Positions 2,392 to 13,398 of a stretch of 64,000 bases of DNA are shown piece by piece. Positions within the stretch are counted from its first letter, which is position 1, and each line of letters opens with the position of its first letter. The translations under genes were made by a program, and so were the position numbers. The notes beneath the pieces were generated by a model. That model was given only the letters and a program-made list of their open reading frames with translations. It was not told the DNA's origin and did not search any database. Location of the stretch: the NCBI GenBank assembly GCA_051313645.2, contig JBNRSN020000007.1, positions 98,518,001 to 98,582,000 on the forward strand. Reading direction: 5' to 3'. The stretch comes from Centroscyllium fabricii (Eukaryota).

Positions 2392-3367
2392 GGCCTACAA
2401 ATTGGAGCGTGTCTATTTTTGGGTGCACAGGGGTGGGGGTGACACAGAATGATCCCTGCACCTGATTGGATGTACCCAATATTGGGCATTGGGCCTCATT
2501 ATTATTGAGCCAGCAAGCTGAGGATACCTAATAGGCGTCCCTAGGCAGCTCAGCAGCATAGGGGAATGAAAGATCTGGTCACTGTGACAGCAGAAGTGGC
2601 CACCAGGTAGGTGTTTGGGGTGGAGGGGAGCAACTGGGAAGGATGGCGATCTGGCTGGGAGTGTAAGCGATCGGGTCGGGAAGGGAGCGGTGGGAGGGAG
2701 GATAGTGATCAGCGGTGATTAGGGAAGGCAGAGACCGAGATTAGGAAGGGAAGAAGCTGGGATTAGGGGGTATGTAGCAGTGGTGATCGGCTGCCTCAGG
2801 TCAAACCAGGCATTAGGCAGGCCCCTAGACGCTGCTTTTTTTTGTTTATACAGGTTGAGTACCGTTAATCTGTTAACTGAAAAACTGGCGGCTTCAGACG
2901 TCCAGCAACGATTTCCCCGACTGCCGTGCGCATGCGCAAAATGGCCACCACGCGTGGCTGCACATGCCCGGGCCTCCTTGAACGATTGATGCTTCGGTGA
3001 ATGATCTGCGCATGCGCCGAGCGGTGAGCGCATGCGCAGACCATTCAAAATTTCATGGCAGCCATTTTGAATGATCTGCGCATGCGCCGCCGAATGATGA
3101 GCGCATGCGCAGAGCATTGAAAATTTTGTGACGGCCATTTTGAATGCTCTGCACATGCGCCGCCGAAGCTTCAATCATTCGCCGTTTTCAACAATTCAGC
3201 AGGGCGCTGGTCCCGACCTTGCCGGTTTAACGGTGCTCAACCTGTACCAATATGGCGGGCAGTTCACTACTGGCTCCTAATGAGTGCCATTCCTGCCCGC
3301 CATATTGGAGGCTTATGATGCCATTTAGCACCCATTTATGAGCGCTGCGTGTCTGAATTTCTAGGCC
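2392..3367. mobile_element. Degraded Harbinger-type MITE hosting a nested Tigger-like MITE
   Basis: Ends GGCCTACAAATT ... AATTTCTAGGCC; flanks AAT/ACT (degenerate TSD). Confidence 0.6.
2851..3244 (-). mobile_element. Tc1/mariner (pogo/Tigger-like) non-autonomous element, copy 1
   Basis: TA|CAGGTTGAGTACCGTTAA ... TTAACGGTGCTCAACCTG|TA; CAGGTTGAG terminus resembles Tigger4/MER46; multiple GCGCATGCGC palindromes. Confidence 0.8.
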
Positions 3368-4142
3368 ACTATGTTTAATATAAATCTTATCAAGATCCTT
3401 CCCATGGAAAAATGGTCAAAAAACCTGAAATTTGATAGTCCTTTATTTGCAACCTTGAGAGTAATCTCTACGTTAGAATATCATTTACTTAATATTAGAT
3501 TACTAGTTTTGGTTTGTTACTTGGTAGTAATGTATTAAATGGGAAGAAATGTCTTGGGGAAATATTTTTTCCAAAATATTGCCCCTTTTTATATGAGAAA
3601 ATGATAGTCACCTTAAATTTCTTTATTTAAAAAATATATATATATTAATTTTATCACTGAAGTGGAGATCTTTAAGTAGGGTTTTCCACGCTGCTCGTCC
3701 ACTCCGATATCGTCAATTACCTGGAATGACTACCATCGGAAACAGCAAGTATGAGACATTAAACCAACCTGAAGTTGCCCAACCCTGGAAACTTCTCCAA
3801 GATAGAAATGCAATTTCCAAGCTTATAACACAATTTCTGGAGATGGGCAGTCAGCATGGAACCCGAAGTTGGTTCAAACTGGGCCTGGATTTAAATCTAG
3901 CCCAGACTAATGTGATGAAAATCTCTTGGCTGTAAGGATCATTTGTAAAATCAGTTTGGGTATGTTTAGCTCACTTTCCAGTGAATGTATATTTGCACAA
4001 CAGAAAGCTTCCCCTAATTCAGCACTAATTGAAATAATACTCATTACTGAATTTTATCCAGTTATTAAATATCCTAGCTAAAGTGGGCATGAAAACATGG
4101 TTTTAAATGCAACTTATCGCATTTTTTCTGTTACTGCTTTAG

Positions 4143-4288
4143 ACCCGTTCATGATGCTGTTGTGAATGATAACCTGGATGTTGTTCATGTTCTACTGTCA
4201 TATGGTGCGGATCCCACCCTTGCTACCTACTCGGGTCAGACGGTTCTGAAGATGACTCATAGTGAGCCAATGGAACAGTTTCTGATAG
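4143..4288 (+). CDS. BCORL1: BCL6 corepressor-like 1, internal exon (ankyrin repeats)
   Basis: ttag|ACCC...ATAG|gtatgt; 146 bp; translates [61 protein letters not shown] and YSGQT match BCORL1 rather than BCOR (from recalled human sequences). Confidence 0.9.
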
Positions 4289-4591
4289 GTATGTGGTTAT
4301 TGCTACTCATTTAATACTTACATTTGTAATTCTTCACTTTATTCAGAGCCAAAAAATATTTTGGAGTTTTCTATATTCTGATGTAATTTGCAACATTCAG
4401 CAAAAGAACAAATTCAGATTTATTTTAGTTATAAAAGAAAAGTATTTTTGAAATGAAAAATGAAATGATGGATTGTACAGAACCAATTTATATAGTTCCC
4501 GACCCCCCCCCCCCCACCGCCCAAGCACTTGAGCACATATGTAGTCTGACAGTTCAGTACAGTGTGGAGGGAGTACTACATTGTCAGAGAT

Positions 4592-6023
4592 GCTGATGGA
4601 GGGAGTCACAGCAGACAGGGAGATCCTCTTCCCTTCTAATGGGCGAAAGAGAGCTCCCCAGGAGACCAACGCAGCCTGGTTGCAGATTGCACAGGAAGGC
4701 ACAAGCAGGGATATCATCAGGAGCAGCAGGCTGCAGTGGCGCAAACCATTCAATTATCTCAGTAGATCACAAAATGTTACTGCAAAGCCACACTCAACCT
4801 CATCCTGCTGTGCCACTTATCACATCCCCATCACTCTGCCTTCCCACCTTACTCCTGTACCTCCATACTCACACCAACTTACCTTGCACCTCCACCCATC
4901 CTTCTCTATCCACATTATCACTTCCCCATCTCACTAGCCAGCCCTCACACTCACCTTCCTCCTAGTGTAATCATACCAACTAACAACACACAAGGGTAGG
5001 CACTTGTGTGTTTAAGCTAATGTTCATGTGAAGTTTCTGTTAATGTGCTATCAAACATTGAAATCTTTATTTTCAACACTGCGTTCTTGGACAGATCCTT
5101 TGGAAGTGGGTTAGTGAGTTGCAGTTAATGGGGAGACAAAATGGTACCCCCGCAATGCTGCTGAGTGTGAAAGGAATGGCTTCCGGCATTGTAGGGATGT
5201 TTTATGTTGTTGGTGTGGGCTGGTGCCTACCTGGCGCATTATGTGTCAGCCAAGGTGTGCAGCATCAAGTGAAGTAAATGTGACCGTGGTGAGGCCATTC
5301 CTGATGTCCCGGGCAGCAATGTGGTCGGGTGCTGATGCCCTCCCCCCTGTGCAGCATCAGTTGATTGCGGAGAAGGTTGGTGTTGTTGGTGCTGCTGGTG
5401 TGCCTGGTGCTGCTGATGTTACGGCTGTTTGTGGTCAGATTCTGAGGACCAAGGTGAGGAAGTATAAACCATACCCATGCTGATGGAATATATGGCAGGT
5501 GAACTTGAGATGACGGAAGCAATCTGTCAATGGTGAGAGAGGTTGTTCCAATGAGGTGACACTGGATAGAGAGTTTGCTCCAAACACTTGCAACCTGCAT
5601 AAAGCTCAATCTGTCTCCCAAATGCAGTAAGCAACAGTTTCTGAGCTTGGAAAGTGAACAGCTGTGAGAGGGGAGCTTTTATTAACACATTTCAAGCTGT
5701 CAAGTAAGGAAATGATTCCATGGCCATTCAACACCCGCCCAGCTTAACAGACGTGATCCCAGAGCAGCGTGGACCCTGTTGGCGAACTGGTAAATTCTAA
5801 ATGAGCTCAAAATTGTTGTTAATCCTGTTAACAAGGCCATAATGACCTGAATTGCCTCCCCACCCGCTGCCGGTCGGGTCTGCTCAGCGCTGACGGACCC
5901 GACATTTGGTAAAGGCACGTGGCGGTGGGTTGACAGCAGGGTCCCGTCCTGCTGTCAAAAACAACACTTTCCCACCCGACTCGCCACCGATCTCACATGC
6001 TGACCCCCCGGAAAATTCCCCCC
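4592..6023 (+). mobile_element. Truncated Harbinger relic: Myb/SANT exon (+), transposase remnants (-), right TIR
   Basis: LMEGVTADREILFPSNGRKRAPQETNAAWLQIAQE...RLQWRKPFNYL is a Myb/SANT trihelix; terminus GAAAATTCCCCCC|TTT. Confidence 0.7.
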
Positions 6024-11550: not shown

Positions 11551-11567
11551 TATTAACAATTGGTTCT

Positions 11568-12486
11568 TGTGAAGGGATAATTACTAGTCCTAGCCCTTTT
11601 TGGGCTACCCCAGATCAAGCATATTCCCCAGACGTTCACTTTCAACTAAAGTTAGAGATAGCTGAATTCTATAAGACGCGGAATTGGGTCTAAAGGTGCA
11701 GGCTATCTCTCTCTAAAGGAAAGGAACATCTGAAGATGTTATCGTCATCCGGATAGCACTTTTAACAAGTTTAACTAGACTGTAACCTTCCGGATATTAT
11801 GAGAGTCCGGAACCGCCCCCCCGCAGAATTCTGCAACTCCTTACAAAAGAGTGTACAGAAATTGAGTTCGCGAGTTTGATACAGAAATACTCTTGAGACA
11901 ATTCTAAAAATATATAAATTTATTGAAGAACCGACATCCAGTTACCAGTTTGTGAGTCAATTGCAACGTTATTAGTTCAAAAACAAATAGCTTACATTTC
12001 TTATCCTCAGAGATTCTTATTCTCAAATCTTAACTTCGTACATTTTTACATTTCTTATTCTTAATTCTAATTCAGAATATCCCCCAAAATCAAATTAAAA
12101 GTACCTTGATCTCCGAGACTCAGAGTTAAAAACTTGCAGAATGTGCCTCTGAAGTTGAGACAATTGTTTTGCCCCTTTCCAGCGACTTCTGACTGTCTAT
12201 CTGAAAAGCTCTATTTTTATTTTTTTAATGTAGTGGTTTATCCTTTGAAGTTTTCTTCTGATGTAAGCTAATTATCTCTAGTCATCTTCCTGTTGACTTT
12301 TCTCTATACTTACTGCCAATTCAACTGTTAGCTTGCAGACTTCTGTCTGTTGTTTAGGTGTTCTGAAAATTTATCATAAATGGCTACAGCAGATCTATCT
12401 CTTTGATGTCATTCTTATTGAAGGTCTTCCACTCAATTCTTAATATATAATTCTGCAAAGCTAAGATTTCTGAGTTTTTGGCCACA
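11568..12486 (-). mobile_element. Putative solo LTR
   Basis: TGTG...CACA termini; minus-strand AATAAA near 11920; flanks GTTCT/GCTTT are only a poor TSD. Confidence 0.3.
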
Positions 12487-12891
12487 GCTTTGCAGATATA
12501 CTGACAGCCGCTGGCTAGCTGGCAAAGATTCGGAGCCCGCCCGCCCACCTGTCAATCACCAGCACTTGACCTTTCCCATTGGTTCCACTCGACTGTGATG
12601 TCACAGTGGTGTGTTTCCATGGGAACTGTCAACAACCAGTGCTGAAACTGTCTGTCAAGCTGCTTGCAGCCCGCTGCAACTCTGATTCGATGGATGCAAT
12701 TACCAGCGGCTCCCCGCACGCGGGGATTTAATTGCTCAATTAAATGAAAATTGCGTGGGGTTCCCAGGTCTTTGGGTGGGTGGGGCAGGAACCTGCCCCG
12801 ACCAATCCCCGCACTTCCAAGCAAATCCCGACCTATCTGTGGATGAGAGCCAAAATTTGCAAGGGAATGACGTTTTGGAGATTGTGTGGTA

Positions 12892-13398
12892 CAGGTTGAG
12901 CACCGTTAATCCGGCACGGGCGGGACCAGGCCCGTGCCGGGAAAGTGAAAATCCCGAACGATTGAAGCTTCGGTGAGGGCATGCGCAGACCATTCAAAAT
13001 GGCCACCGCGAAAGACCGGCGGCCATTTTGAGTGGTCTGCACATGTGCTTATCGTTCGGGGAGTCCCGGCCTAGCCCGCGTTCGGGGAGTCCCGGCCCAG
13101 CCCGGGTTAAGGGAATCGCAGCCCAGCCCGCGATCGGGGAGTCCCGTCCCAGCCCGCGTTCGGGGAGTCCCGGCCCAGCCCGCATTCAGGGAGTCCCGGC
13201 CCAGCCCGCTATCGGCTCGGAGAGACCATTGTGAATGATCTGCGCATGCGCTCGCTGTTCTTTGGCGCATGCGCAGATCATTTGCCGAAGCATGAATCAC
13301 GGCGGCCATTTTGCGCATGCGCAGGGCAGTCGGGGAATTATTGCCGGACGTTCGAAGTTGCCGATTTTTCAGGTAACGGATTAACAGTGCTCAACCTG
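12892..13398 (+). mobile_element. Tigger-like non-autonomous element, copy 4, with an internal 26-bp tandem repeat
   Basis: TA|CAGGTTGAGCACCGTTAATCC ... GGATTAACAGTGCTCAACCTG|TA; six units of CGTTCGGGGAGTCCCGGCCCAGCCCG at ~13053-13209. Confidence 0.85.

Follow-up and report, generated by a model that had tools for sequence, protein, structure and literature searches.

What have four short DNA transposons done with their interiors while keeping their ends in common, and do those interiors serve any promoter-like purpose? The question is raised by a 64,000-nucleotide stretch of Centroscyllium fabricii contig JBNRSN020000007.1 (positions 98,518,001 to 98,582,000, forward strand; here the window), in which four MITEs (transposable elements of the miniature inverted-repeat class), E1 to E4, lie in introns of the shark gene BCORL1. 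Most of their internal diversity consists of inverted and tandem duplication of the elements' own sequence, as found in E1, E4 and the foldback of E3. We give a probability of about 60% to the following account: E1 to E4 stem from a single MITE family of pogo/Tigger type and represent four of its subfamilies, separated for a long time; selection on master copies preserves the family's palindromic module, which gives rise to foldbacks, arrays and, now and then, replacement of an interior, and the insertions themselves are methylated and neutral. A sequence-only reading of the window had proposed instead a Pack-TE-like system that exchanges cassettes at palindromic modules and mimics housekeeping promoters, perhaps to escape methylation or seed enhancers.

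The coordinates and lengths of the four elements were confirmed as 394 bp for E1 (2851-3244, plus strand), 549 bp for E2 (8791-9339, plus strand), 1055 bp for E3 (10496-11550, minus strand) and 507 bp for E4 (12892-13398, minus strand), with TA flanking both ends of all four. When the 64 kb were searched with the pattern of the 22-bp terminal inverted repeat (TIR), allowing at most 3 mismatches, eight matches were found, every one at an end of E1 to E4. Over these eight ends only 13/176 positions deviated from the majority, and seven of the ends started with CAGGT. Every element carries two end blocks of distinct sequence, A (~130 bp) and B (about 110-125 bp); the A block is on the left in E1 and E2 and the B block in E3 and E4. 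Pairwise matches between end blocks of the four copies in 64 kb were 70-83% identical. The claim of common TIRs and subterminal blocks stands. All the copies, which are of different lineages, fall within 10.5 kb (2851-13398) of the window (P=0.016, post hoc). The same position-8 variant occurs in both TIRs of E2, which suggests a separate subfamily. The termini may resemble those of Tigger4/MER46.

Since a TA target-site duplication (TSD) and a short CAGGT TIR fit the pogo superfamily, non-autonomous pogo/Tigger-type DNA transposon appears a fair description of these TA-flanked elements, and "Tigger-like" a fair label, the partner transposase aside; families are assigned by the phylogeny of the transposase. 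According to PMC7386202, pogo/Tigger elements have a TA TSD and TIRs of up to 40 bp, many of which begin with CAGGT, and entries for pogoR, Tigger and Lemi in its Table S1 combine CAGGT termini with a TA TSD. The sole chondrichthyan row of that table, whale shark Tig1B, has a TIR different from that of E1 to E4. In the element frames scanned no Pfam family exceeded the cut-off; a YoaL match in a frame of E4 was below it and was taken as chance. Rfam gave no structured-RNA match in the 64 kb. In the literature searched, neither this family nor mimicry of promoter motifs by MITEs of sharks was found described, and a repeat library may already contain the family; it is a real and probably undescribed shark MITE family.

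A different cargo in each copy had been proposed, and for two of the four copies this is not supported. By BLAST decomposition, 394/394 bp of E1 matched the other elements, indicating that E1 has no cargo and is made up wholly of end blocks and module copies (fold z -8.0), including a 73-bp tandem repeat of 2.4 units (2998-3167, recorded with E1 by tandem-repeat detection). For E4, 341/507 bp were shared, 156 bp were self-repeat and 10 bp unique. Its 26-bp array of six units (13053-13208, plus strand) is in register at its start with a B-end foldback (arms about 12953-13008 and 13019-13060), an arm of which reaches the opening bases of the 26-mer, and a hairpin is present at the A end (13233-13282). 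That the 26-mer was derived from B-end sequence may be entertained as suggestive only (p=0.10-0.72 in one test series, 0.051 in another). The sequence of E3 comprised 386 bp shared, 340 bp self-repeat and 329 bp unique; it holds an array of six 51-53-bp units with a 105-bp higher order (10622-10959, plus strand; 51 bp x6 or 105 bp x3) and a 155-bp foldback (11335-11489, fold z -14.9) that is an inverted duplication of the A-end subterminal block. In E2, 245 bp were unique. The interiors had been called unrelated; this holds for E2 and E3, which are not detectably homologous, but E1 is family sequence throughout and E4 is family sequence plus the 26-bp array; a foreign interior is doubtful for E4.

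Relative to the four copies, then, only E2 and E3 appear to carry foreign interiors, of ~240 bp each. They have a common layout of A block, ~240 bp of unique sequence, internal module and B block. The unique interior of E2 (236 bp, 8922-9157) begins at the centre of a module palindrome and is followed by an internal module copy (9158-9204, minus strand) with the same position and orientation as in E3. In E3, a plus-strand segment at 10956-11088 contains a GC box (10956-10968), an 83-bp unique spacer and the internal module, with NRF1-like, YY1-like and ETS-like sites at 11052, 11072 and 11081. The unique interior of 246 bp that follows (11089-11334, plus strand) contains an exon-like CT-rich stretch and a splice-donor-like site at 11255, and an acidic frame on the minus strand. 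Homology between the two interiors, suspected from their equal size and position, was rejected: p=0.022 was obtained as one of 14 tests, p<0.05 in only one of ten scoring schemes, no global signal was present, and 139/274 and 154/292 unrelated GC-rich windows scored equally well. The neighbouring MITE was ruled out as a source by comparison, and no donor was found within the 64-kb window. As the unique parts of E2 and E3 are without detectable homology, they are not simple deletion derivatives of one autonomous parent, in line with the earlier proposal.

Two explanations of these interiors have to be weighed here. In Pack-TIR capture, copies of a host promoter or first exon would have entered E2 and E3 by gap filling and then been amplified, which is compatible with the account preferred here as far as these two copies go. 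The interiors are unlike the ends and unlike each other, and their unique parts hold four matches to promoter motifs where 0.7 were expected (p=0.015). On the plus strand the motif order of E3 (CCAAT array, GC box, NRF1-like, YY1-like, ETS-like, exon-like stretch, donor) matches the human promoter motif classes given in bioRxiv 2023.06.27.546584, and a Pack-TIR survey (PMC8277862) reports a frog hAT MITE that took 291 bp of the CAPSL 5' untranslated region (UTR) and transposed three times. However, the same survey places 57% of animal Pack-TIRs within 15 kb of their donor, whereas none was found inside the window, and records multicopy Pack-TIRs as rare (4 cases). Moreover, the NRF1-, YY1- and ETS-like sites of the E3 "promoter" belong to the family module common with E2 and not to foreign DNA. 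Capture could apply to at most two copies, and we regard it as possible though rather unlikely. Alternatively, the interior of E3 would be the remnant promoter and first exon of an autonomous parent, with the B end as its 5' end and the transposase ORF (open reading frame) lost behind the donor, and E2 would come from another parent. The motifs do point inward from the B end and end at a donor, and donor sites also occur in other TIR elements of the window (19387 and 19458; 1764 and 1816). Yet E2 and E3 have the B block and internal module in common and differ in the DNA beyond, and no transposase remnant was found in element frames of at least 75 aa or in the long frame of E3; we consider this origin unlikely.

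The acidic coding-like piece assigned to E3 as cargo found no protein relative. For this 155-aa frame no match was obtained among near-length proteins (152 candidates) or by phmmer in 1.84 billion representative proteins, and residues 100-155 had no relative among longer proteins (72 candidates, weak evidence). The frame is antisense to the promoter-like layout of E3 and is read as a by-product of the CT/GA-rich tract.

Junctions or small deletions were located at the centre of the palindromic 10-mer at 8921, 9249 and 11356, consistent with hairpin-induced template switching. This bears on the idea that cassettes are swapped at palindromic modules: breakpoints do lie at or near module cores, but as evidence their position is weak, because modules line the inner edge of both end blocks anyway.

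The module itself is ~32 bp long, contains the palindrome, combines an NRF1-like 10-mer with a relaxed YY1-like core and stands at the inner edge of both A and B blocks. The exact 10-mer GCGCATGCGC occurs 14 times in the window, each time inside E1 to E4, against 0.024 expected, and all 14 copies go back to a single subterminal module that foldbacks and tandem duplication have multiplied. In the A-end module block, 27/32 columns were invariant vs 19/41 in the adjoining spacer (p=0.001), and two 14-mers were invariant in 4/4 elements. Mismatches at the A end numbered 5/128 in the module, 32/164 in the spacer and 7/88 in the TIR. Between subfamilies, the module's conservation is roughly equal to that of the TIR and far exceeds that of the spacer.

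Such conservation could also be expected if the module were a subterminal site bound by transposase and resembled NRF1 and YY1 motifs only by coincidence. Its subterminal place, its repetition, its presence at either end and its conservation across lineages fit this, and PMC1636448 reports that subterminal repeats of the Emigrant MITE are bound by Lemi1, a pogo-like transposase. On the other hand, the best match between TIR and module is 6/7 bases, the module is unlike the TIR, and TIR sub-words are not repeated inside the elements apart from one weak match in the E4 array. Emigrant resembles the present family as a pogo-type MITE with repeated subterminal motifs, but its footprinted TIR1 repeats, as described there, copy half of the TIR. 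We find a transposase site with only a chance resemblance to host motifs doubtful.

Since the elements had been said to retain CpGs and possibly to escape methylation, their CpG content was compared with the surroundings. The ratio of observed to expected CpG (o/e) was 0.84-1.19 in the elements and 0.12-0.33 in the AT-rich intron. The adjacent MITE reached 0.95 and the interiors of Gypsy elements 0.83-0.86, so retention is real relative to the intron and not special to the elements. That adjacent MITE is a GC-rich TIR element between E2 and E3 (9638-10378) with a cAMP response element (CRE) palindrome at 10204 and three YY1-like sites. In 13 once-identical segment pairs within the elements, CpG transitions were 15/90, which is 1.82-fold the 8.4 expected when methylation was left out of the simulation (P=0.022); among control repeats, ten pairs gave 32/178 vs 15.2/159 (1.89-fold). 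Relative to the column majority, transitions affected 14/168 CpG and 15/448 other C/G positions (p=0.017), and decayed module cores were found at 2960, 3151, 10603 and 13039. The CpG excess is thus as in control repeats, and to judge from these counts escape of the elements from methylation is not supported. According to PMC5437953, transposable elements and gene bodies of the elephant shark are hypermethylated.

The place of the insertions also bears on this point. The host gene was recognised as shark BCORL1 by its PUFD exon (23012-23308, plus strand), which is 96% identical to the protein of the white shark (Carcharodon); 11/12 protein matches of this exon are named chondrichthyan BCORL1/BCOR, one is unnamed, and its best PDB match is BCORL1. 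Exons were mapped at 4141, 8319, 22213, 23012 and 28544. E1 is in the intron preceding the ankyrin-repeat exon at 4141-4284 (plus strand, protein match), nested in an older GGCC-ended TIR element (2392-3368) that comparison of termini suggests to be Harbinger-like. E2 to E4 are in the intron following the exon at 8319-8405 (plus strand), the next exon being 22213-22362. All four elements are thus intronic and toward the 3' part of the gene, distant from its promoter, and no element sequence was found in the 11 shark BCORL1 proteins compared, of 12 matched.

That the copies act as unmethylated CpG-island mimics, serving as enhancers or promoters at BCORL1, would fit their high CpG o/e, their dense motifs (33 matches vs 4.8, counting duplicates) and the low number of transitions in module cores, where the choice of cores was biased. 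According to PMC5655803 and PMC12676858, Xenopus MITEs and young DNA transposons can become p300-bound or open, but in the latter only 18-47 of 3,500-7,200 copies per family are at liver-specific open sites. The copies in the shark lie in gene-body 3' introns and show the same CpG transition excess as control repeats. Methylation, moreover, blocks binding of NRF1. Such a role is very unlikely.

The promoter-like motifs were evaluated with a panel of nine promoter classes, eight as given in bioRxiv 2023.06.27.546584 plus RFX, each represented by a consensus pattern. In the non-redundant family sequence seven matches were found vs 0.99 in shuffles (p=0.004), of which four (NRF1, YY1 twice and RFX) had been pre-selected by the sequence-only reading and three (SP, NF-Y and donor) had not. 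Ratios elsewhere in the window were 1.0 for Gypsy interiors, 0.8 for Harbinger coding DNA, 1.7 for long interspersed elements (LINEs) and 1.1 for intron. The E3 core holds five motif classes vs 0.63 (p=0.0025), while two other regions reach four classes per 400 bp. As for the individual sites claimed, the NRF1-like 10-mers and an RFX-like 13-mer in E2 (8958-8970) were verified; strict YY1 (AANATGGCG[GC]) and strict NF-Y (RRCCAATSR) patterns had no match in E1 to E4 and 11 each outside, so the YY1 and NF-Y sites of the elements are relaxed versions.

The likeness to housekeeping promoters is a real enrichment, but not one peculiar to this family, since five other TIR elements of the window were also enriched (12 matches vs 4.8, p=0.006; TSD-verified elements alone, 7 vs 2.7, p=0.018). 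These control counts omit 33515-34576, which was picked after its motif matches had been seen, and the second arms of palindromes, which would be counted twice. A de novo scan gave 24 TIR pairs vs 3-7 in shuffles; because of these chance pairs only TSD-matched or hand-checked pairs were used.

The tandem unit of E3 contains a 9/10 match to the TALE decamer with CCAAT 19 bp downstream, intact in 5/6 units. In post hoc tests this composite arose in 22/5000 shuffles, and motif columns of the array were invariant in 14/15 cases vs 18/29 for other columns (p=0.035). Two further composites were found in the other 62.9 kb of the window. Ladam et al. (PMC6023610) report a mean spacing of ~20 bp, to which the 19 bp in E3 come close, for TALE and NF-Y, a maternal pair, in zebrafish blastulae, and enhancer activity in just 1/7 TALE/NF-Y elements tested.

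Taken together, these motifs allow a bolder proposal, namely that in sharks several superfamilies include non-autonomous TIR elements that are selected, at the transposon level, to carry sites for housekeeping-promoter and maternal pioneer factors (the NRF1/YY1-like module, TALE and NF-Y arrays, RFX, GC box and splice donor). These sites would transiently open a copy to transposase in trans in the egg, blastula or germline, and would be renewed by hairpin-driven duplication and capture of promoter DNA. Promoter mimicry would then be a transposition strategy and not host exaptation. We think this improbable.

Under the account we prefer, of four subfamilies remodelled around a palindromic module, hairpins would hold up replication or repair; the resulting template switching would multiply modules and seed arrays, and gap repair would occasionally bring foreign GC-rich DNA into interiors, as in E2 and E3. 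Mobilisation would be by a pogo transposase in trans. The module may be maintained through selection on transposing master copies, its most likely benefit being that bound host or element proteins assist access or synapsis. Individual insertions would be methylated and decay like other repeats, with CpG retained because the elements are relatively young, in a slowly evolving genome. Several points weigh against this account. Only four copies are present, each of a different lineage, so changes in the master are inseparable from decay after insertion. No pogo transposase domain (DDE_1 or HTH_Tnp_Tc5) was detected in the 148 ORFs scanned out of the window's 238 of at least 75 aa, which lie within the first 49 kb and comprise all but some nested frames there, and no TIR with identical first 9 bases is among the rows covered of PMC7386202 Table S1. 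Set against GpC, the CpG excess in the elements (0.167 vs 0.096) falls short of that in controls (0.18 vs 0.062), the numbers of CpG are small, and of 80 CpG positions in module cores only 4 had undergone a transition, in cores whose choice was biased by ascertainment; the elements may therefore enjoy partial CpG protection. Finally, the promoter-like layout of the foreign interior of E3 is not explained by a MITE-family model alone.

Other repeats were also observed in the window. TIR elements with 3-bp AWT-type flanks, which appear Harbinger-like, are located at 666-2240, 6393-7286, 19119-19866 and 33515-34576, and splice-donor-like, CCAAT, CRE, ETS or NRF1-like motifs occur in several of them; the stretch 6723-7021 forms a 97% palindrome. 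Between E3 and E4, an unclassified repeat (12549-12625) contains a perfect TALE decamer on the minus strand, a CCAAT ~30 bp off and an RFX-like site at 12613. Remnants of Harbinger-type transposase (DDE_Tnp_4) and Myb/SANT occur at 15366-16288, 20332-20604, 36044-37057 and 48409-48971, the first two in the same BCORL1 intron. Long terminal repeat (LTR) retrotransposons at 42907-47048 and 53990-60299 have LTR pairs 92-95% identical, and in their interiors units of 69 and 45 bp that contain AAGATGGC words are repeated in tandem; another is apparently nested in the second at 56700-59888. A near-perfect palindromic element with 93-bp arms of 99% identity is at 32503-32873, and an AT-rich tandem array (68 bp x8) at 49733-50271. 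At 37388-38456, inverted repeats of 315 bp (96%) surround a 190-aa frame that by eye looks Penelope GIY-YIG-like and had no Pfam match.

Several known systems are comparable. Non-autonomous pogo/Tigger elements (Gao et al. 2020, PMC7386202; human MER44/MER46-type, PMC5753468) are alike in the TA TSD, a CAGGT TIR of <40 bp, the lack of an ORF and a length of 0.4-1.1 kb, but E1 to E4 differ by the repeated non-TIR module at their ends and the unmatched TIR. In Xenopus Xmix/Xstir (T2-MITE) and miDNA4 (Tc1/mariner) and clam DTC84 (PMC12628747, PMC6004289, PMC3879986), conserved ends likewise form a "cassette" that houses internal repeats of varying kind, and rearrangement points coincide with palindromes, whereas the shark family combines two arrays of different kinds with two unique interiors unrelated to each other, one array unit being TALE plus CCAAT. 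Pack-TIRs (Tan et al. 2021, PMC8277862) and MER6 with a captured SINE (short interspersed element) V domain (PMC6887750) are TIR elements with foreign interiors; the former include the frog 5'-UTR capture, and TcMariner carriers are common, but Pack-TIR status requires an identified parental copy outside transposable elements, with microhomology at the breakpoints, and only 2/4 shark copies are candidates. MITEs of plants (PMC5950925) and Xenopus (PMC12676858, PMC5655803) similarly multiply transcription-factor motifs in non-autonomous TIR elements; the shark motifs would differ in belonging to general RNA polymerase II promoter and maternal pioneer-factor classes, in a module conserved across subfamilies.

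Most likely, E1 to E4 stand as an apparently undescribed MITE family that illustrates hairpin remodelling of interiors and multiplication of transcription-factor motifs, and that is of use in annotating repeats. The conserved non-TIR module matching host promoter-factor motifs, together with the TALE/NF-Y array, is the sharper lead. If host factors bind the module or array and raise transposition, this would help explain how a non-coding MITE gains access to transposase, and shark genomes would hold a large reservoir of latent promoters.

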